Source: Lytechinus pictus
Taxonomy: Eukaryota
NCBI RefSeq assembly: GCF_037042905.1
Contig: NC_087245.1
Span: 29,824,001-29,888,000 of the forward strand
Direction of reading: 5' to 3'
DNA: 64,000 nucleotides
Position 1 is the stretch's first letter; every line of letters begins with the position of its first letter. The position numbers were made by a program, and so were the translations under genes. The notes below the pieces were generated by a model that did no database searches, was not told the origin of the DNA, and worked only from the letters and a program-made list of their open reading frames with translations. This document shows positions 5,769-63,645 of this stretch, one piece after another.

Positions 5769-6971
5769 ACAGTAGACTATGCCTGCATTCTCCACTTATC
5801 TGGGTTTTTTGGTGCTGTTCCCTTGGAAACTTAAAAAAGTGGCAATTTTGCCTTAGAATGCCTTAGAATGTGTGCTTATTTGGCATGAATTATCAAATCA
5901 ATGTAATTTTTTCACAGTAGGGGAGACCGGGGTTAGTTGGAACGTGGGGTAAGTTGAAACATTGTTATTTTCTTTAACGTCTTAAAATAAATTTCTGCAA
6001 TACTGCCCTCAATTTATTGTCATTATCAACAGCCATCCACCATATTACAGACAACACATGTGCAACAAGCCTGGCGACGTTAGAAAGGAATTTTTGTTTT
6101 TTTACCTTCTGAGTAATTTTTTTCTCTTTCAGAAATGTTTGATTATCTCAGAGAAGTTTATAGATCAAGTTGGCCAGTTTGGGGTTATAATAGACACTTA
6201 TTTCAAGCTACAAAATGAGGTTATTAATATGCCATGGTGAAGTCCCTTAATTTTTTGTGCTGTAAGCTTATAAACGTCAAATGGGCCTCCGGGGTTAGTT
6301 GGAACAAATTTTAAGGGGCTAGTTGGAACATGTTCCAACTTACCCCAAACATAATTATCAATAAAAACATTGGATATGAGAAAAAAATATATAAATTATT
6401 TCACACTCTTCTGAACATGTATTGTATACCATGCTTGTTTTGTTTATCAGTTAGGTCTGAGTGTGCATTTAAGGCCTATTGTAGGCCCCTAATGCAATAT
6501 TAACCCTTATCAAACTGGGGGGGGGGGTCAATTTGAGCCCTCCCCCCCCCCCCCGCCTCGAGAAATTTCGTCACTCCCCCCTCGCGCGAATTTTTTTTTA
6601 CTACACTGCTCGCTGACTTTTGCGATGCCTGTGTGCGCGGTTTCGAAATTACGCAACATTTTGTACATGCATGTTCGGATCCAAAATTGCTCAAAAACGT
6701 GATTCCATGTACAAGGTCAATGCAAATTGTGTTTTTCAACCAAAAGTCATAAATGTATGATTATTTTTTACTTTTGTTGGTTCAAATAGATTTATTTTAT
6801 GCTACATGTATTTATGATTGCAAAAGAGTCCCGACAAAGTTCATCGGAAAAAAACAAAGGTTTGAAAAAAAAAGAAAAAAAAAAGAAAAAAGATACATAA
6901 ATTATATTTTATGCAATTTTTGGTGGATATTTGTTATAAATGTGAAAATTGATAATCTCACCAAAAATTAG

Positions 6972-7545
6972 TGTAGAGTGGCCAAATGTTCAATGATACA
7001 CCTCACATAACCATTCGTAAAACAAGCAAACTCAAATCATATCAAACAGCCAGAAGCACCAAATAAGAAGAACCTAAAATATAATGAAGCTGAACTAAAC
7101 TCAAAATAAAGATGTTGACAAAATGAAGTCCAGTGATGCTCTAATTTATTGGTCTGCAATCTAGACCTCACAAGGCATTGCCTTCACAAATTATATATTC
7201 AAATGTATTCAAAATAATGTCACATGATAAATTCAACCAATGGAGAAACAGAGAATGGGAGAACCCAGAAAAGTGGAGGAACCAAGGGTGAAAGGTGAAC
7301 CAATGAGGATGAGGTAAGATGATATGAATGAAGAAGAATGTTCTGAATGTAAATGAGAAAATAACAATAGAAACATGTGAAGCTGTATGGAGTTGGAATG
7401 GCAATGGAATGATGTGATGTAGAAACTAAGGAATGAGAGAAACAGGTGTGTGACAATGGTATGGAAATAGAAAGTGAAGAGAAGTATGGAAAGCAAATGG
7501 TGAAATAAACAATAAGATTAAATAAGGCAAAATTCAACTCTTACA
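6972..7545 (-). repeat. 3' LTR
   Basis: Direct repeat of 11010-11583 at constant offset 4038; AATAAA on - strand at 7145-7150. Confidence 0.95.
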
Positions 7546-7548
7546 TAA

Positions 7549-7563
7549 GCTTCCTTCTTCACT
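7549..7563 (-). other. Polypurine tract of the LTR element
   Basis: Minus strand reads ...agtgaagaaggaagctta|TGTAAG immediately before the 3' LTR. Confidence 0.7.
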
Positions 7564-8844
7564 AAAAATGTCCTCATTTTTATAAGTTTCAAATTGATAC
7601 CAAAAAAAAAAAATCGTCAAAAGTAATTTTCTGAAAACTTTTGGATTTACAAAATGAGGATGAGTACTTTCTTTGAGGAAGGAAATCTATACATTATTTT
7701 TGTACATATAAATATCTGCATTTTTAGTTGTTGCATCTGTCAGTAGAACAGTTAAAACTGGTTATCAATGATGATTAACCAAAATCAGAATATCTAGAAT
7801 TAAACATTCAAATCGGGGCCTTTTTTTTTGCCTCTTACAAATAAAAACAATATTCTTATCAATTCGAAGTGAATAAAAGAACTTACAATAGATGCTGTTC
7901 TTCTGCCATTTGCAATATAAGTTCATGAACATTCAAATAATCCGTTTGTCTTTCATGTCAATAAATATATACATGGCATCAGATTTGTTTTGTCACTTTT
8001 CAATATACATGTTGCCGACAGAAAGAAATATAACAACTTTTAAAAATGGATTTTGATACAAATTTAAGTTTGTGTCCATTTGAACTGACACATGGAAATC
8101 TTTTTTTTTTTTCTTCTTTCAGTTGTTAAAATAAATTCTGTAACAAATTTGGAACTAAGTGCATTTTGGTAAACATGGAAAAAAAATTGTATTCCATTTG
8201 AATAAGGGAAAGTATAATATATTTCTCTCCGTGCAAACAGAATATTGTTTGATGATACTAGATTGTCTTGCAGAAATTAGTCTTTTCTCTTTTATTTCCA
8301 AGGTATAACATAACTATAAAACATAATTCCTTTTGAATTTGGAATACTTATACATCCATTTTCCATATTTCTTTTTAGATATAAAAACAATTCCAGTTTT
8401 TTAAGTATAACTTTTGGAAAAGTTAAAAAAGTTGAAAAATACATACTTATCAAATATTTGAAAATGTGAAACATTTCAGTCAAAACTTTTTCTTGTTTTA
8501 AATCTTTTGAATTTTATTTGTTTTAAATCAGTATTATGTAATATTGTTGCTTTTCCAGTTTTCACTTTTGATTTGTTTAGTCTGCTAAAAGTTATTAAAA
8601 TAGTATTTTATCACATAAGAAAATAATTTGGACTATTTTCTTTCTTTTCACAAAAAAAATCATTCTGACTTTTGGTCTTAAAATGTGAGACTGAAAAGTT
8701 TCAATATTTTCTTACAAAACATTGCCATCTTCTTTTTTTCTCGTCTAGTCTTCTGCCCATCATTTGAGAATATAGTGATTGGTAGTTGACATCTGTGGCC
8801 ATACTTCAGATCTTGAAGCAAGTCCATGTAGTTCGTAATGACTG

Positions 8845-10554
8845 TCAGCTTGGGTTGGTACCGAGTGTGTATGAAGACGTACAGGTTTGGAGGTGAGCGC
8901 CAGGGTTGATGGTACCCTGACCTCCCTTCCAAGAAGAAGGATGATACTCTGCTTTGGAGATCTCAGAGAGAATGAAAGAATCAGAGTTAAAGGTACTCCG
9001 ATCATTCATCCACGAAGGAGGGTGAATGCTAGAATGGGGAGAAAAATGTGGAGTCTTGAAGTTAGGGTGATTACTGTAGGTGAAAGGAGACTGGTGAAGG
9101 ATGAAGTTGGAGGCATCATCTTCTATAGGAGACTCAACGATGCTGAAGTCATCTCCAGAGGTAGACTTGATATTGCGAGAGTCAGCTTCTGTGGAAATCA
9201 TGCAGACATTTGAGTCGATATCTTTCGAGGAAGACCTGGGTTTCTTCTGGTAGTTGGATTGTTTCTTCCCAGTCTTGGACTTTTTCTTACTTGGTCCATC
9301 TTTGAATTTTTTCCTTGGTTGGCAAGATGTTGGGTGTAATAACTTGGTTCGGCAGTCTTTGAAGTCTTCCTGTGGTTGGTATGATGAATGGCTGATCCGG
9401 GAAGAAGGCTGGTTACCATTGCTTGCGTATTGGTTGGGATGACAAAGATTGCAAGTCTTGCAAAAGTTCAAGATGTCTTGGTGCATGAATGGCCAGAATA
9501 GTTCAGACTTGGCTTTCTCCAGGGTCTGATCAATGTCAAGGTGCTCTGCTGACTGATGATCATGGAGAAGTGGCAACATCTCTGGAATGAGATTCCTTGG
9601 GATGACCGCTTGGAAGATCTGTTTCACTTTCTTTCTGTCCATCTTGGATCGATAGAGGATGTCATCTTTAACGCAGAAACGAGGTAGTTGCCATAAGTAA
9701 CGTCTAACTCGTGGGTGGTATTGACGAATCTCTTTTGGCGAAAATCTTTGTCCATCAGTTACAGTCTCTCTCAGTTTCCTTATTTCTCTGTCTTTCATCT
9801 GATGTTCGAGAATTTTCAGTTCGAGGCTGGTGAAGGACTTAGCTGGATGAGGACTTCGTTGGTTGATTGAGATAGGTCTGCTGTCAGTGGTTTTCTCCAG
9901 ATCGGTTTGGGTACCTGCAGAGACTGATGAAGGAAGCATGGGTGTGATGACTGAAACTATTGCTGGAGGAGGCTGAAAATTGGTAGGTGTATGTTGCCCG
10001 AGTTGGTGCTCTTGTCTGTTAGAGGGGGCATTCCTCTTGGCTTGGTGTCTTAGAGGGCTCGATAAACTGAGCTGAGGTTGTTGATGTGAGTGCTGGAGTC
10101 TCTCTAGCTTTTCTTCTAGTTTCTCTAGACGAAGGAGGACTTGCTGGAGCACTTCACCTACATTCCTTAAGGCAGCAACCCGAGACTCTTCATCTGGTGA
10201 TGATTGCGATGAAAGGGAGTGGTCTGGTTCGATGAAGGTTGCTTCACTCTTGGAATGCGCATCAAAATGTTTCTGGTTGGTAGAGTTGCTGGATGTCTGG
10301 AAGTTGTTCGGGTTGCCTCTTCCAAAAATCGCAGATAGGACAGTCTTAGCTTCATGGAAGTCTTTCTGTCTAGATTCTGAAAAGCTCTCCCAAACTTGCA
10401 AGGCGGAACCTGCTAGACACGAGGGAAGGAGGACATGTATACGGCTAGGCGCATCAGGTACCATCTCTACGGCGACTTCAAACCGTCTGACCCATTGTCG
10501 AAAATCTTGCCCATCATCTCCTGTGAACGCCTCTGGTAATTCAATGTCAAACAT
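8845..10554 (-). CDS. Retrotransposon ORF (569 aa from the ATG): Gag capsid-like N-terminus, coiled coil, integrase HHCC zinc-binding domain, basic/Ser-rich tail
   Basis: N-terminus PEAFTGDDGQDFRQWVRRFE...LAGSALQVWESFSE...DFHEAKTVLSAIFG is Gypsy Gag-like; LLRLEKLEEKLERLQ is a coiled coil; VIPRNLIPEMLPLLHDHQSAEHLDIDQTLEKAKSELFWPFMHQDILNFCKTCNLC is integrase H2C2; PPSWMND resembles the Gypsy pol C-terminal motif. First ATG is at 10554. Confidence 0.88.
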   Translation of the reverse strand: MFDIELPEAFTGDDGQDFRQWVRRFEVAVEMVPDAPSRIHVLLPSCLAGSALQVWESFSESRQKDFHEAKTVLSAIFGRGNPNNFQTSSNSTNQKHFDAHSKSEATFIEPDHSLSSQSSPDEESRVAALRNVGEVLQQVLLRLEKLEEKLERLQHSHQQPQLSLSSPLRHQAKRNAPSNRQEHQLGQHTPTNFQPPPAIVSVITPMLPSSVSAGTQTDLEKTTDSRPISINQRSPHPAKSFTSLELKILEHQMKDREIRKLRETVTDGQRFSPKEIRQYHPRVRRYLWQLPRFCVKDDILYRSKMDRKKVKQIFQAVIPRNLIPEMLPLLHDHQSAEHLDIDQTLEKAKSELFWPFMHQDILNFCKTCNLCHPNQYASNGNQPSSRISHSSYQPQEDFKDCRTKLLHPTSCQPRKKFKDGPSKKKSKTGKKQSNYQKKPRSSSKDIDSNVCMISTEADSRNIKSTSGDDFSIVESPIEDDASNFILHQSPFTYSNHPNFKTPHFSPHSSIHPPSWMNDRSTFNSDSFILSEISKAEYHPSSWKGGQGTINPGAHLQTCTSSYTLGTNPS

Positions 10555-10992
10555 GGTTAAACCTATGTCATCAAATAACTTGACACTGCTGAAAAGGGTA
10601 GGCAATTAAGACTAGAAAATCCCAGAATAATTTCAGAGTGCTGGAGAGGGTTGAGCATATACACATGAAGGAGGATGTGACGTAGTTCTAAACAGCTACA
10701 AACATTTCAGAAAGGACTTCAAAGTTATGGTAGCACAGCTTAAATGGAAGCAAGGCTGAAAATAACTGTTTCATCAAGCAGCAGTTTACAAAACCAACAT
10801 GAAGAAGGGTGACTAGTAAAGGCTATCTATGATGAGAATAACAGGATTATACAGGCAAAAGGCTTACCACAGAAATAAGAGCTGGAACTAGCTGAATAGA
10901 TTGAGTATTGAACTTGACGAAGGATGCTAGGGTGTAAAAATCTTGAAGAAAGGGCGTGGCAGGCTCGGAGTTTCCTGGGTAAGACAACAGGA

Positions 10993-11007
10993 CCACCGCT
11001 GCTACCA
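10993..11007 (-). other. Primer binding site
   Basis: TGGTAGCAGCGGTGG two nt after the 5' LTR; resembles the complement of tRNA-Leu (one mismatch) or tRNA-iMet (first 9 nt) 3' ends. Confidence 0.8.
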
Positions 11008-11009
11008 GT

Positions 11010-11583
11010 TGTAGAGTGGCCAAATGTTCAATGATACACCTCACATAACCATTCGTAAAACAAGCAAACTCAAATCATATCAAACAGCCAGAAGCACCAA
11101 ATAAGAAGAACCTAAAATATAATGAAGCTGAACTAAACTCAAAATAAAGATGTTGACAAAATGAAGTCCAGTGATGCTCTAATTTATTGGTCTGCAATCT
11201 AGACCTCACAAGGCATTGCCTTCACAAATTATATATTCAAATGTATTCAAAATAATGTCACATGATAAATTCAACCAATGGAGAAACAGAGAATGGGAGA
11301 ACCCAGAAAAGTGGAGGAACCAAGGGTGAAAGGTGAACCAATGAGGATGAGGTAAGATGATATGAATGAAGAAGAATGTTCTGAATGTAAATGAGAAAAT
11401 AACAATAGAAACATGTGAAGCTGTATGGAGTTGGAATGGCAATGGAATGATGTGATGTAGAAACTAAGGAATGAGAGAAACAGGTGTGTGACAATGGTAT
11501 GGAAATAGAAAGTGAAGAGAAGTATGGAAAGCAAATGGTGAAATAAACAATAAGATTAAATAAGGCAAAATTCAACTCTTACA
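11010..11583 (-). repeat. 5' LTR
   Basis: Direct repeat of 6972-7545; the ORF track gives identical translations in both copies. Confidence 0.95.
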
Positions 11584-12549
11584 TTAGCATTCTACTAGCT
11601 TAATAAATAGAGTTAAAGGCAAAAACATACAAAAAACAACAAATTAGGGCAAATTTCATATGCTTATTTGCATAATTAATTAATGAAAAAAATATAAACA
11701 ATTAATTTTTGTCTTATAAATTTGATGCAGAAGTACATGAAATTGCTGATAGTACACTTAATCGCATGTAAAATCAAACGCACCCAAATATGCGGAATTC
11801 TACTAATCAGTCTGCTTGCGTGAGTGGCTGTATAATAGAAAACATTAAGTTCAACGAATCCACACTTTAATATTTTGAACTTGAATAAAATAAAGCAAAT
11901 TGGCTAAAACCATGTAATATTACAGTTTTAAGTAGTTTTAGTATAATTCTTAATTGACCATGCAGTGTTCCAACTTACCCCTCACCATGTTCCAACTTAC
12001 CCCGTATTGGGGTAAGTTGGAACGTTTGCGATGGTCTTGTTCAAGGTGGGTTTTTTCAGTAACCATAATAGAGTTAAAAATCTTATGGGGTACATATGAA
12101 GCCCTTAGATATATGCTTCAAGCTGATATATAGATTGTTTCTCGAATAAAATCTATTTGGATTTTACAGCCATTTTTGTCAAAAATGTTCCAACTAACCC
12201 CGGTCTCCCCTATATGTAATTTAAGTAAAGACTAAATTTCAACACTGTCAACTGCCAAGTCATTTTGTTGAAAAAGTAAGACCAATTTCATTTAGGGGAA
12301 ACTTCTTTCGTGTCTTGTCTTTCTGTTGATGCCCACAATCAAATTGTTGATTATCATGGCAAAGTTGAAAAAGTTATCTTGACATTTCTGTGCTTATGAT
12401 TTTTTGTTGGTTTTCTTTTAAGATGAAAAAAGAGAAGACTTTGCTGGGGATGCCATTTATTTGCTGACCCTTGTCAACGGTTGCAGCACACACTACCTCA
12501 GCTGGTAGACAATTCAGTCCTTGAAAATATGAGGCAGGAATCAAGATCC

Positions 12550-58883: not shown

Positions 58884-60213
58884 CTGTATAAAGAGAAAAA
58901 AAAGAAAGAAAGGGTAAACATCAACTTCAAAGAATAACTGTACACAGTACACTGCATTAAATGATTATAGGGTACATAATAACAATGAAGAGAAAAAGAA
59001 TTGTGAAACACAGGAAAACTTGATGTAAAAAGAGAGCATCAAAACTAAGGAACAAAATATGAAACCAAACCTCTTGTAAAAAGATCAAAGGTGGAAACAA
59101 ATGTAAGCAGAGGAGTTATAGAAAATAGAAGAAATATCAAAGTACAAGTAATAGAGAAGAAATAAGAAAGGGGAAAGAGAAAGAGAGAGTGATATAGGAG
59201 ATCTATGTAGATAAAGTAGGATATTTTTTCTAATGCTAAATTAAAACCATGTAATGTAATTTCTCAATTTCATTACAATGAATTTAAGATTGAATTATTT
59301 CCATCAAATTCAATTTACAACATACTATACAAATCAATGCCAATAGCCATCTATCCGCACCCTGAACTTTGGATGCTATGGTTTCTATCCCTATTCCTTT
59401 AATGTGCATCACTTCAAAATTATCATGAATGCATTTTAATTTCAAAGCAGTTATGATGACATAAATCTTTGAAAACTGTTACCTTTGTAAATATTGCAAC
59501 CCAAATTCATGCCTACAATGTACATGTATATGTTCAATGTTCTTGTTCACATCAAATGTCAGTTTCACATCAAATGTCAGTTTCACATAGATTATTAGTT
59601 ACTGTCACTTTACCTGTTCACATTAGAAAATGTACACAAATACACAGACACTCTAATATCAAATAATGTATCTTAAATCTGGAAAATTGACAATATATTT
59701 TTGTAAAGATTATACACTACATGTATGCATATAGCCTGAAGAAAAATGTGTAATCTAGGTGTTGTAATTGAAGGATGGTTCATGCAGATATTGAGAAAAT
59801 GTAAATAAAATTTTCCAAAAACTACCTATATCAAACATGTTAAATAATTTCAACAATTTTTTCTATCAATTCAACAATAAGAGAGCATTCTAAAAACTTC
59901 TTCACAGTATAAATTTGGTACAGGTTCAATAATGTAAATTTTAAAGTATTACTCTTTGTTCTTCGTTCTAATGATCAATCTTGCCAAACAATTGTATCAA
60001 CTCTAATGTAACTTTATACTAATATCTATAGTCTTTATTTTAGAAAATCACTCTCACTTTTGTATCAGCCTTTTTCAATAATTGTTTTCACTTTTCTAAT
60101 ATACATGTACATGAACATGTACACCGTAGGCCAACTGAACACTAATCTTAAACATCAAAAGTTTTAGTGATATATCAAGACTGACCTTGAAATCATAGGG
60201 ATATTAATATATA

Positions 60214-61032
60214 CAGTGCGTCCCAGAAAAAACGAAACCGAGATTTAGCGATGATTTATCATAACTTAATCACAAATACAATAGACAAATGACCTACCAA
60301 TGTAAAGCTTAGAATCTCCTCTTTCATCTGATATTACTTAAATTATTCCTCATTCACGCATGAGCGAGCAAAAACAATTTGAAGAAAGGATACCAAAAAC
60401 TCATTTGGCGGGGGGTATCTGAATTTCAAAAAGAAAATCACATTTCTTAAAAGTTCAATATCTGCTCTTAAATTTGATACCTCAATTACAGAAAATGGTC
60501 AAGAAATAACAAAGTTCTGGTTATTTGAAATAAGGCTTGAATTTCCATAATTTCATTAAATAAACTGTTTTCACCAGTTTCCCACAGAAGCTATCGCATG
60601 GTTAACAAAAAACTTAATGCATGGCTGATCGTAAACAAAACGGAGTGTCGAGTGAGTTTGAACGCTAGCCTGTAAAACCGCTTAATTTTATGAAATTATT
60701 GAAATTCAAGCCTTTTTTCAAATAACCAGAACTTTGTTATTTCTTGACCATTTTCTGTAATTGAGGTATCAAATTAAAGAGCAGATATTGAACTTTTTAA
60801 AAATGTGGTTTTCATTTAGAAAGCCAGATACAACCCGCCAAATGACTTTTTGGTATCCCCTCTTCAAATTGTTTTTGCTCACTCAAGCGTGAAGGAGAAA
60901 TAATCTAAGTAATATCAAATGAAAGAGGAGATTCTTAGCTTTCCATTGGTAGGTCATTTGTCTATTTTATTTGTGATTAAAATATGATAAATCATCGCTA
61001 AATCTCGGTTTCTTTTTTTCTGGGACGCACTG
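60214..61032. mobile_element. Tc1/mariner-type fold-back MITE with ~340-bp TIRs
   Basis: TA|cagtgcgtcccagaaaaaa...ttttttctgggacgcactg|TA; the arms are complementary for most of their length. Confidence 0.9.
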
Positions 61033-61758
61033 TATAGTGTATCTTAATGCTGAAATTCTACTTCATATTTCATACAGGGACCTAACTCCTTTTTAATTCA
61101 CAATTTTATACATACTGTATAATGTTAGATTTTATATTGTATATTTCACACAACAAATGTTTCATGATAAGAAAGAATATATTCTTTTACTTTATAATCT
61201 TTCATTTTACCTGTCAACAAATTTAAATTGTGAAATCTAATCATCTTTTAAAGTCAGAAATTGAGGACTTTAAAAGTTATCCTCACATACAATGAAGTTT
61301 GTATAGTGTGAATGAAGCAAATACTACGTGCAGGGTTGCACACATATCTGACTCAATCAACTTCGTAATGGGATATTGCGCAAATATGCTAGACAGAGTT
61401 TGAATACTTCCATTTCATAACAAGCAAAACTTAACTTTTTCCATTTGGGACCTGGACTGAACAATAGAATGAGTCATATTTAGATTTCTATAATGGTGCC
61501 TAACTGCCCATTAATATGTCCATGATTAATAGATCAATGGTTTGATGATACTTAGATCTTGAAAAATCTGTTTCCAGCACAATCCATGTAATCATAAAAT
61601 AAGGGCTTTGATGGGGTAGGATTTGGATTGGAACACAAAAGTACCACCTTTACTCTTAAAATGGTATTCTTTTCTTTTCCCGGCAGAAAGGACAAACTAC
61701 TGTGACAGTTTTGCACAGATGCACAGATGCAAGAGAAAAAAAAATGATCTCACAAATT

Positions 61759-62233
61759 AGGTGGTTTCAAACCGCCTCGATCACAAGAATCCCCGTTAAA
61801 TTACGAGAACATTTTTAGGCTAAAAAATACCCATTAATTATTCCTGCATTCAGACCGCCCCGAAACATACACTTCGGGATAAATTCCTGAAGTTAGGAGC
61901 ATGCGCAGTATGGTCTAATAAGCAGGCAAGGCGCGAGATTCAAAACTACTAGCCCAGCAGCCACCCACGGCGCCGCACCCAACGACACGCTGGGCAAAAA
62001 GTTCCCGTAATTTGCTTTCACATCGCCAAAATACCTGCGACCTTGGAAAAATCCCCGCGAAAGTTCTCGTAATTTCGCCAAGTACCTACTATTTAGCGGG
62101 TATTTTCTTTCGGGGAAATTACGCGTAGTTTGCTTTCACATTACCAAAATACCTGGTATTTTCTGATCGGGGTAAATTTCCCGATCAGAGAATACCTGGA
62201 ACGGACGAACTTCGAGGCGGTCTGAAACCACCT
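61759..62233 (+). mobile_element. PIF/Harbinger-type MITE, copy 1
   Basis: TIR aggtggtttcaaaccgcctcga; 3-bp TSD att. Confidence 0.85.
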
Positions 62234-63204
62234 ATTGTGTAACCATATCCTTTTCAGGGGGAAAAAATCACATGGCGGCTGAAGGCGATTTGACCCCTGC
62301 AAAGCTCAGAACAAAAAAAATGAGCCCTGGAAATCCCCATTCATACATGTAGCAACGCTAAAGCTTAACCAATGTTGCAGATTTAGGCAGTAAGTTGTGC
62401 ATTTTTTTAGCCTGATCCTTTCCCCACACTTTTGTTATCTACAGAATCAAGCTAATTACTTGTTTGATTTTTAGAAAAATCATTCATCAATTTTGTTGTA
62501 ATTCATTTATAAACCTAAAGTTTACAATTATAAACAAATTACAGGTGCAGTATGTATGCCAACACAGTCTAAAGATAGTACAAGTATATATCACAACATT
62601 TCCTGTTACCGTTCTTTGCTTTTACAGTTTCATATTGTTTCGCTTCATTCAATGCAGGCTAGGATGCATTAGTGCATGTACAGTGTAAAAAAAAAGGCTT
62701 AATAGAGCGAACCGGCTGAAATAATATGCATTGTGGTATAAAGTGGTGAAGTCAACAAATCAGAAAATATTTCATACATATGCATTCAATTCTATTAAAT
62801 TTGCAAATTGAATTATTGGAGAATGTAATTTGATGGTGTACAGACTGTCTCTTTTGTAATTTGGTCATGCATACTGGAGTTTCTAACACTCGTACTTTTC
62901 AATTCGATAGGCCAGAATTAATGAAAACAGGGTGAGATGCCGTACCTATATCACAACATACTGTTCACCAGCAGCACAATCCATTTTGTAATTTTGTCAT
63001 GCGTAAATTATTTTCCCCATCTGATTGTACTTTTCAATTTCATAGATGCCTTAATATCTCAGATACAGTATATTGAACCTACATTAAGATGGTGCAATTG
63101 GAAATTTTGCCACACTCTTCCCCCAAACAGATATGGACTTTGTTTATGAGCCAAATTGAAGGATTTCAATTGCAAAAGGTATTACATGCATACTTTTACA
63201 ATAA

Positions 63205-63645
63205 AGGTGGTTTCAGACCGCCTCGAAGTTCGTCAGTTCCAGGTATTCTCTGATCGGGAAATTTACCCCGATCAGAAAATACCAGGTATTTTGGTAATGT
63301 GAAAGCAAACTACGCGTAAAAATGGCAAAATTACGAGAACTTTCGCGGGGATTTTTCCAAGGTCACAGGTATTTTGGCAATGTGAAAGCAATTTACGGGA
63401 ACTTTTAGCCCAGCGTGTCGTTGGGCGCGGGCGCCGTGGGTGGCTGCTGGGCTAGTGGTTTTGAATCTCGCGCCTTGCCTGCTTATTAGACCATACTGCG
63501 CATGCTCCTAACTTCAGGAATTTATCCCGAAGGGTATGTTTTGGGGCGGTGTGAATGCAGGAATAATTAATGGGTATTTTTTAGCCTAAAAATGTTCTCG
63601 TAATTTAACGGGGATTCTTGTGGTCGAGGCGGTTTGAAACCACCT
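63205..63645 (-). mobile_element. PIF/Harbinger-type MITE, copy 2 (inverted)
   Basis: Same TIR; TSD taa; reverse complement of copy 1 with a small deletion. Confidence 0.85.

Follow-up and report, generated by a model that had tools for sequence, protein, structure and literature searches.

The 4,612-bp element at positions 6972..11583 of the Lytechinus pictus NC_087245.1 window (the whole 64,000-nt stretch that was analysed) lies on the minus strand and is a Ty3/Gypsy derivative, and its single ORF very probably encodes a selected protein of a helper-dependent parasite. The preferred reading, to which a probability of roughly 0.4 is given as a whole, is that the element comes from a long-established lineage of non-autonomous Ty3/Gypsy elements that depend on a helper and encode an adaptor or decoy protein. 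Outside the ORF the element contains the following features.

6968..6971, no strand: left target-site duplication (TSD) TTAG, 4 bp, matching the right copy
6972..7545, minus: 3' LTR, 574 bp, identical to the 5' LTR
7546..8034, minus: 3' untranslated stretch that, taken with the LTR start, is ~81% identical to the helper family; it may serve in packaging or priming
7550..7560, minus: polypurine tract (PPT) of 11 purines, the same in the helper family
8313..8314, minus: site of 572-582 extra non-coding bases in three sister copies, from sister comparison
10993..11007, minus: PBS for tRNA-Leu, 14/15 bases matching
11010..11583, minus: 5' LTR, 574 bp
11254..11483, minus (also 7216-7445): helper-type LTR patch, LTR bases 101-330
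11584..11587, no strand: right TSD TTAG, 4 bp, matching the left copy

The two LTRs (6972-7545 and 11010-11583) have TGT...ACA ends and are identical at 574/574 bases. The PBS, read from 11007 to 10993, matches at 14/15 bases the complement of host tRNA-Leu ends that were located as pattern matches in the host genome; eight of the nine tRNA genes called at two pattern-match loci were tRNA-Leu. TG...CA LTR ends, a short TSD, a PBS and a PPT are all present as in Ty3/Gypsy elements, and the coding parts nest among Ty3/Gypsy elements with the pol order PR-RT-RH-IN, according to an integrase-region tree and to how domains are ordered in the autonomous relatives. The element encodes none of the four parts that define an autonomous Ty3/Gypsy element (protease, RT, RNase H, integrase core), and the selected 569-codon ORF sets the element apart from TRIM and LARD elements with their non-coding internal region. 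No tRNA gene was found in the 64,000-nt window or in the short flanks of 26 loci, and thus there was no sign of Ty3-like tRNA targeting. A sequence-only reading had described identical LTRs, an intact PBS, PPT and TSD and an uninterrupted frame, all of which was borne out; its term "young" fits the copy, with its identical LTRs, but not the protein, which is old and selected.

The ORF and the parts of its product are positioned as follows.

8845..10554, minus: single ORF, 569 codons plus stop, 1,710 bp, no internal stop
10315..10554, minus: first half of the folded Gag region, residues 1-80; second half absent
10087..10179, minus: Gag-derived coiled coil, residues 126-156 (hhalign)
9901..9933, minus: TQT (215-217) within residues 208-218, candidate LC8 motif (sequence)
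9442..9828, minus: integrase N-terminal extension (NED) and HHCC zinc finger, residues 243-371 (Pfam, model)
9223..9315, minus: lysine-rich basic segment, residues 414-444 (sequence)
8902..9087, minus: tail with a duplicated HPxSW...GGQGTIN-type motif, residues 490-551, common to P0005

A Pfam scan recovered Integrase_H2C2 above the cut-off (E 1.2e-13), as the sequence-only reading had proposed, and gave no match to protease, RT, RNase H or rve in the 569-codon ORF, that reading having likewise seen no protease, RT or integrase core; autonomous pol proteins gave RT, RNase H and rve under the same scan. The zinc ligands are H331, H338, C368 and C371; their conservation within the A type, to which this ORF belongs, is incomplete (H338Y in L033; last cysteine altered in P0001 and P0005). 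Residues 243-371 were modelled with a pLDDT of 92, and comparison of the front-end model with solved integrases yielded Z scores of 9.2 for prototype foamy virus (PFV), 8.0 for Ty3 and 5.3 for MLV. In a Foldseek search no match reached E <= 0.001, and the eleven best-ranked entries were integrases of Ty3 and PFV. Over residues 235-378 the predicted fold is that of the NED and NTD of these three integrases (PDB 7q5b, 4bac, 3nnq for Ty3, PFV and MLV); unlike them, the ORF front end lacks the catalytic core and the C-terminal domain and is fused to a Gag coil and TQT. The single-sequence fold of residues 1-400 (pLDDT 41) was used for helix positions only, and an ESM Atlas search with the protein returned no usable match.

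A basic segment follows the zinc finger at the same place in family B, a second family in the genome, and in P0005. Two further candidates found no profile support in hhalign: derivation of the A tail from a pol tail, and an integrase-core remnant in the conserved helix after the zinc finger of family B. The earlier description of PPSWM as resembling a pol C terminus likewise gained no support from profile comparison (hhalign E 0.23). As a separate observation, PSW/PPW words occur in 3/4 pol proteins checked, and the PPSWM motif is conserved in P0005.

The Gag capsid-like N terminus proposed earlier holds in part. Residues 1-79 are 59% identical to ORF1 of the autonomous helper family and 67/80 residues (1-80) are identical to the relative P0001, but the Gag part of the ORF is not recognised by Pfam, and a purpose-built profile found no second half of the folded region in the ORF. 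A full capsid protein is therefore impossible. Since a search of the Gag alignment against solved structures found no capsid and its Pfam matches were weak (DUF7083 9/25, PNMA 4, Retrotrans_gag 3, Ty3_capsid 1), "capsid N-terminal domain" is a designation by position. By profile comparison the coil at residues 126-156 matches Gag (E 1.1e-5) and shares homology with the coil at the N terminus of the family B protein (E 6.3e-6). Large losses were correctly recognised before; their number is at least three rather than two. Both the Gag and the Integrase_H2C2 domain, whose recovery had been put forward as a check, were recovered, through the identity to ORF1, Pfam and the fold comparison.

The protein has diverged unevenly. 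Between the ORF and P0001, 173/238 domain positions are identical compared with 42/127 in linkers (73% vs 33%, Fisher p 3e-13). In 1000 neutral simulations, 60% identity with no stop was never attained, and the largest simulated domain-linker contrast was 0.18, against ~0.40 observed. Because the domains are conserved far above the linkers, the copy is young whereas the protein is old and selected; the substitution pattern shows purifying selection concentrated on the Gag N-terminal half, the coiled coil, TQT and the integrase front end. At this depth divergence is strongly non-neutral, which upholds the earlier proposal of a selected parasite protein rather than decay. Within the genome the dN/dS signal is weak, at 0.5-0.6 (p 0.08 and 0.07 per family allowing for transition bias; pooled over families 0.017 at kappa 2.2 and 0.077 at kappa 5). 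RNA sequencing, also suggested as a check, gave no support: in ~6% of each of two raw runs of the species (tissue unspecified) 0 reads fell on the ORF, and the 11 and 1 reads obtained lay in LTR or UTR only. A search across sequencing runs listed no RNA run containing the ORF, which counts neither for nor against expression.

Four copies of ORF family A occupy four loci, each with its own TSD, and the three sisters keep the frame open, so the architecture extends to sister copies as anticipated. The four copies have 0 indels in the 1,710-bp ORF, and the three sisters contain 10, 18 and 20 elsewhere. Family B retains coil, TQT and integrase front end without the Gag domain, which is thus dispensable. 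Its ORF is open in 10/10 fetched loci, with in-ORF indels of only 6, 3, 33 and 33 bases (eight loci aligned to L060). Relatives in other data sets are 40-76% identical and lack RNase H or integrase core; P0001, P0004 and P0005 are of A type, P0003, P0011, P0013, P0014, P0021 and P0034 of B type, and P0040 is a further related protein. Coil, TQT and integrase front end are common to all relatives. A JGI metagenome scan contained no relative, while contigs of a related genome, organism B, cover the ORF at ~92%. In the integrase-region tree, which omits L033 and L084 (near-duplicates), L070 and P0019 (partial) and P0010 (domain twice), the A clade has support of 99/95 and the B clade 100/98. P0040 has a separate origin (p-AU 1.8e-6), and a single A + B clade was neither demonstrated nor rejected (p-AU 0.37). 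A tree of the Gag part grouped the four A proteins (94/91) and singled out no donor.

An autonomous partner with the same LTR ends and PBS, for which a search had been suggested, was found as the 8.7-kb family L036-L045. Helper and parasite have the same PBS, PPT and LTR ends, and in 50-base bins across LTR bases 1-450 their LTRs agree at 86-100%. LTR bases 101-330 are identical to eight helper copies at 226-228/230 positions but to five other copies with the parasite LTR at only 212-215/230. Two events of segment exchange with the helper were recognised as reciprocal mosaics, which indicates that both RNAs have met during reverse transcription. In both groups LTR pairs are 99.1-100% identical, as expected of elements active at the same time; these partner criteria (PBS and LTR termini, LTR regulatory sequence, co-activity) follow portions of PMC11302176 and PMC9744471. 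The ORF lineage differs from that of the helper: the integrase parts are ~40% identical, and an origin from the helper is rejected (AU test p = 0.00017). On this sequence comparison the deletions are ancient and not derived from the present helper. The shared PPT-LTR junction has 17 exact matches in the genome, and helper and parasite copy numbers are low. Among the part of the candidates that was scored, none was identified as an intact autonomous element of the parent lineage, and no helper with family B LTR ends was found. Elements without an ORF exist with A LTRs (L034, L035) and B LTRs (L090-L093), in perfect or near-perfect pairs; since they moved, the protein is not needed in cis.

LC8 (DYNLL) clients are defined by a TQT in a disordered region adjoining a coiled coil, and the ORF protein has all three: TQT, disorder and a neighbouring coil. 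The three-residue motif is kept within otherwise unalignable linkers in 11/11 non-autonomous proteins covering the site, compared with 7/74 autonomous linkers; these counts are not independent, because the proteins are related and three of the seven autonomous cases belong to the parent clade. To judge from these sequences, the parent lineage already carried TQT between RNase H and integrase, and the motif was inherited from there; the present helper pol has none in this linker. In a model TQT docked in the host LC8 groove with a score of 0.76, the best control scoring 0.05, for peptides that lie outside the calibration of the tool. Runs shared >=69% of contacts with a partner pLDDT >=57, and the docking mark is reached by 51/78 solved pairs and 2/108 mismatched pairs. 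Solved LC8-TQT complexes exist, and the pass may therefore stem from model memory. The motif is regarded as a candidate LC8 dynein-light-chain site.

Of the possible roles the likeliest, although unproven, is that a dimer of the protein works as an adaptor or decoy on the particles or intasomes of the helper; the sequence-only reading had suggested co-assembly with a helper capsid, binding of helper integrase or RNA, or dominant-negative action, each of which may apply. An adaptor function as such is put at somewhat below even odds. Capsid, RT and integrase would come from the helper. The parasite protein may dimerise through its coil, aided by host LC8 at TQT, and would thereby display the integrase front end twice, along with a basic tail. 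Gag-derived contacts could let it enter or coat helper particles, where, as a non-catalytic adaptor or decoy, it might engage the ends of the cDNA, the integrase of the helper or a tethering factor of the host, so that a larger share of parasite genomes would be packaged, carried or integrated. In part of PMC8632968 the Ty3 NED is described as stabilising LTR contacts and binding TFIIIC, and in part of PMC6101501 the DGLT-A NED as binding Tfc4.

Other explanations were weighed against the adaptor or decoy. An unlikely alternative is trans-dominant inhibition: the protein would poison assembly of the helper's capsid or intasome and hold copy number down, and it would persist by sparing the host or suppressing competitors. 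Half a capsid region with a catalytically empty integrase front end has the expected dominant-negative look, the 17 junction matches agree with limited copy number, and Ty1 p22/p18, in excerpts of PMC4599808 and PMC8458377, is a precedent for a truncated LTR-element structural protein that could act in trans on particles. Yet a helper-dependent mobile element would damage itself, no capsid domain exists in family B, and the distance of the ORF lineage from the helper (40% identity, integrase part) weakens specific poisoning. Rather unlikely, too, is a transport or condensate factor, in which LC8 binding and the basic low-complexity tail would carry or concentrate parasite RNA at helper particle sites such as oocytes, the front end being a nucleic-acid-binding module. 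The universal TQT, the docking model and the basic segment after the zinc finger in both A and B types favour it, and the Gag of foamy virus is targeted to the centrosome through its binding to LC8 (excerpt of PMC3705265). The present helper pol moves well without TQT in its linker, however, and conservation is strongest in the integrase module. Moreover, LC8 is often a dimerisation hub rather than a cargo adaptor.

If the frame were kept only for RNA translation or stability (NMD escape, ribosome loading) and the protein were inert, a dN/dS only mildly below 1 and an absence of frame breaks would fit, but divergence should be uniform; the domain-linker difference largely refutes this very unlikely explanation, as do the retained fold and TQT and the movement of ORF-less elements with the same LTRs. 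Host domestication under way, with LTR copies as by-products, would accord with deep conservation despite low copy number (4 and 10 copies). Its probability is nevertheless very low, because 14/14 coding copies examined, at different loci, lie inside elements whose LTRs are near-identical, and no older LTR-less copy was present among 77 scored matches; a domesticated gene should occupy a single immobile syntenic locus without working LTRs, whereas family A has four LTR-bounded copies with distinct TSDs. Finally, a recent deletion derivative left in frame by luck could be imagined from the parent-lineage deletion derivatives L068, L069 and L072 in the genome, but was judged refuted by the simulations and by the closest autonomous pol in the genome being ~40% identical compared with 56-57% for same-architecture proteins in other data sets.

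The adaptor or decoy lineage resembles described pairs in several respects. As portions of PMC11302176 relate, RLG_Quinta of wheat is non-autonomous, has kept an intact ORF for tens of millions of years, and shares the PBS, the LTR termini and a portion of the LTR with its helper RLG_Cereba, the coding part having diverged; it encodes a whole Gag and an unknown domain without integrase, whereas the present proteins have half of Gag or none and keep the integrase front end and TQT. TR-GAG and semi-autonomous elements (RLG_Sabrina, sugar-beet families) are also coding non-autonomous LTR elements, and RLC_Angela is a described case of LTRs co-evolving and helpers being switched, but according to parts of PMC9744471 and PMC13570524 Gag or Gag and protease are retained there and pol remnants are partly decayed, while the selected core here is a pol-derived non-catalytic module. 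Neither the intact full Gag ORF of the TR-GAG or Quinta type (family B has the coil only) nor its lack of pol-derived coding domains (NED and zinc finger are present) applies. A layout of capsid pieces, TQT and only the front end of integrase had no match in the literature searched. Tentatively, these proteins could form a recurrent, undescribed class of satellite retroelements with an LC8-dimerised empty integrase front end, of at least two and perhaps three origins, surviving helper switches by LTR swapping and actively redirecting the helper particle or intasome to the parasite genome, in analogy to satellite phages that exploit helper capsids.

Non-autonomous LTR elements are usually viewed as passive RNA passengers or Gag donors. 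Here, a non-catalytic integrase module and a candidate host-binding motif are kept across lineages 25-57% identical, and this conservation sets the N-terminal extension plus zinc finger apart as a functional unit that can be separated. It also suggests that some Gypsy pol proteins carry a putative LC8 site between RNase H and integrase. Helper, coding parasite and non-coding parasite form a natural three-part system, which bears on whether retrotransposon parasites actively manipulate their helpers, a question that is addressable with proteins alone.

The element at 6972-11583 on the minus strand is a real non-autonomous Ty3/Gypsy element (family A), and its protein is selected. The LTRs are identical at 574 of 574 bases, TTAG stands on both flanks, the tRNA-Leu primer-binding site (PBS) matches the host tRNA-Leu ends at 14 of 15 bases, and the 3' LTR is preceded by a run of 11 purines. 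The following features of the window were recorded.

6972-11583, minus strand: family A element
10554-8845, minus strand: its single ORF, 569 residues
10085-10609, plus strand: antisense 174-codon frame across the ORF start, open also in sister copies L032 and L033
12550-13509, 41592-42580 and 52150-53090: dispersed repeat of about 1 kb, three copies 98-99% identical, with internal 160-190-bp units
60210-61036 and 61759-63645: paired long inverted repeats, 365 bp (91%) and 216 bp (98%), likely from non-autonomous DNA transposons

Integrase_H2C2 was the sole Pfam domain above cut-off in the ORF. Residues 1-79 share 59% identity with ORF1 of an autonomous family. Of the folded Gag region the second half is absent, and residues 126-156 match the coiled coil of Gag (hhalign E 1.1e-5). 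The TQT at residues 215-217 stems from the linker between RNase H and integrase in some autonomous pol proteins (P0006, P0007, P0025, L069, L078). C-terminal to the zinc finger follow a basic segment and a tail matching no identified source. The sequence-only reading had proposed at least two large losses; the losses stand but their number does not, as at least three are needed (second Gag half; Gag tail through RNase H; integrase core onwards). A model of residues 235-378, based on a 40-sequence alignment (pLDDT 92), was compared with 48,161 chains. PFV integrase (Z 9.2, rmsd 2.0, 92 aligned) was followed by Ty3 integrase (Z 8.0, rmsd 4.8, 111 aligned) and the MLV integrase N-terminal domain (Z 5.3, rmsd 4.0, 89 aligned), the fourth-ranked chain dropping to Z 3.1. 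With these top matches, the module kept is, by its predicted fold, the integrase N-terminal extension domain (NED) plus zinc finger.

A search of the 812-Mb genome yielded three sister copies (on C5, C13 and C15), 97-98% identical across the first 3.3 kb; their target-site duplications differ from one locus to the next, and their LTR pairs are 99.7-99.8% identical. The frame is open in all three, stopping 8 codons early in two, and against them there are no indels in the ORF and 10, 18 and 20 outside it, so that the architecture first read from the window copy recurs in its sisters. In two loci with the same LTR (L034, L035), the element strand lacks any ORF of 150 codons; among elements with both junctions, the diverged remnant L095 not counted, family A has 4 coding versus 2 non-coding members.

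A protein search of the genome returned ORFs of 374-393 codons with about 30% identity to window residues 185-447, which define a second family (B). The 10 loci fetched, chosen from matches listed as open-frame, are all LTR elements, roughly 4.0-4.7 kb long, whose frame is open and whose PBS fits tRNA-Leu; no other coding element occurs among those with both junctions (10 coding versus 5 non-coding), five unpaired PBS matches, including the broken remnant L076, lying outside the count. The protein comprises, in order, coil, TQT, integrase front end (Pfam E 2.1e-10), conserved helix, basic segment and low-complexity tail. It contains no Gag domain, and families A and B have no similarity at the DNA level. 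Four elements with B LTRs (L090-L093), each about 3.3 kb long and non-coding, have LTR pairs 99.5-100% identical.

Relatives in other data sets were read as protein records. They are A-type (P0001, 57%; P0004, 56%, a fragment; P0005, 40%) or B-type (P0003, 76%; P0011, P0013, P0014, P0021, P0034; fragments P0008, P0111), and in P0040 a Gag N-half is fused to this module, TQT being absent. Of 157 proteins screened, the module was present in 128 and neither RNase H nor core in 41, most of the latter beyond the named set being short fragments or frame-broken pol. In P0032 and P0054 the front-end profile matches three or four times in tandem and the core is missing, which may be a further reuse of the module. 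In a second organism, the ORF is covered by a 2,040-base contig (161 differences, 18 gap letters) and by another with 64 differences over 632 gap-free aligned bases.

In an integrase-region tree (47 rows), the A (99/95) and B (100/98) clades are nested in a 100/99 clade with autonomous pol P0006, P0007, P0009, P0025, L068 and L069. AU tests rejected grouping A with the helper integrase (p-AU 0.00017) and adding P0040 to A and B (p-AU 1.8e-6), but not A and B as one group (p-AU 0.37). Tree and tests indicate that the architecture arose two or three times and that the present helper is not the source. All parent-lineage members retrieved from this genome carry deletions; L068, L069 and L072 are such members of the TQT-bearing lineage, and L069 has its PBS directly joined to the RNase H end and whole integrase.

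The autonomous 8.7-kb helper (L036-L045) encodes a Gag of 372 residues and a Pol of about 1,440 with RT, RNase H and rve. It has in common with the window element the PBS, PPT, LTR ends and first 450 LTR bases, of which bases 331-450 are family-specific. In the window copy, bases 101-330 agree with 8 helper copies at 226-228 of 230 positions and with the 5 other copies that carry its LTR at 212-215, and bases 1-100 of L033 match helpers at 97-99 of 100 and the window copy at 89. The element is shown to depend on a helper and to exchange sequence with it. Template switching in shared particles would be the simplest reading of the mosaic LTRs, gene conversion being the alternative. No helper with family B LTR ends was found in the genome. 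L034 (G000:C7:49185888-49190414) is a non-coding chimera of A LTRs and an interior 91% identical to L090, which hints at one helper common to A and B; part of the A 3' region is also present in it, in inverted orientation. Helper-family copies at L046-L047 (G000:C2:747500-765000) are heavily rearranged with inverted LTR pieces, and similar short structures, also inverted, occur on C26 and C61. An autonomous Gypsy of a different family with identical LTRs (L073, G000:C1:29986500-29996400) lies about 150 kb from the window. In L036-L045, L073, L075 and L078, Gag ends in an Arg/Ser/Pro-rich tail similar in composition to SR splicing factors, and Pfam reported no zinc knuckle family.

Between the window ORF and P0001, domains are identical at 173 of 238 positions and linkers at 42 of 127 (p 3e-13). 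Neutral simulation gave an open frame at 60% identity in 0 of 1000 runs and never reached so large a domain-linker contrast; chance is an extremely improbable explanation. Sequence comparison shows a modular protein under long selection, in agreement with the earlier proposal of a selected protein rather than decay. Within the genome, 13.5 synonymous and 23.5 non-synonymous changes in family A and 18 and 31 in family B correspond to a dN/dS of about 0.5, rising to 0.6 once the measured transition bias is allowed for (p 0.08, 0.07; pooled 0.017). This is a weak signal and not strong support, as expected of young copies, in which unselected changes are present. All four zinc ligands are retained in 8 of 8 aligned B-type proteins, and one is changed in each of L033, P0001 and P0005.

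TQT is the LC8 (dynein light chain) motif. Of the non-autonomous proteins covering the place, 11 of 11 have it upstream of the module, in linkers otherwise poorly alignable, as do 7 of 74 autonomous linkers, a contrast inflated by kinship. Host LC8 (L097) was modelled together with residues 200-232, using two copies of each, and the complex scored 0.76 (best control 0.05), with contact agreement of at least 69%, partner pLDDT of at least 57 and residues 208-218 at the interface. Among solved pairs, 51 of 78 attained the pass mark, as did 2 of 108 mismatched ones; peptides lie beyond the calibration, and the pass may reflect memory of solved LC8-peptide complexes. In another autonomous family (L075, L079, L082), TQT at pol residue 25, directly after the gag-pol overlap, is a possible second LC8 site position. 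The genome also has 18 intronless dynein-light-chain-like ORFs, many clustered (L097-L104; more on C2, C6 and C11).

Coding non-autonomous LTR elements (Quinta, Sabrina, TR-GAG), LTR co-evolution and helper switching have been described (PMC11302176, PMC9744471, PMC13570524; further related papers PMC8149907, PMC3705265, PMC4599808, PMC8458377). Those elements retain Gag and their pol remnants are described as decayed, whereas here the integrase front end is selected. No paper on such an element or on TQT in Gypsy pol was found in a search with Repbase, Dfam, supplements and most subscription journals outside its scope, where families of this sort may be catalogued.

The leading reading is that the protein may serve as a dimeric adaptor or decoy. 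In Ty3 the NED binds TFIIIC and stabilises contacts of the LTR (PMC8632968), and that of DGLT-A binds Tfc4 (PMC6101501); by analogy, a free pair of front-end modules could engage helper integrase, hold the ends of the cDNA or act as a chromatin tether. That the protein is an inhibitor is unlikely, and a role as transport or condensate factor, the reading touched by the modelled LC8 contact, slightly more so. Translation for its own sake is improbable beside the domain-linker contrast, and host use of the protein is a slender prospect. Two raw RNA runs (tissue unspecified) gave 0 reads on the ORF. Because ORF-less elements are also mobile, the protein must give the element an advantage without being required for its movement.
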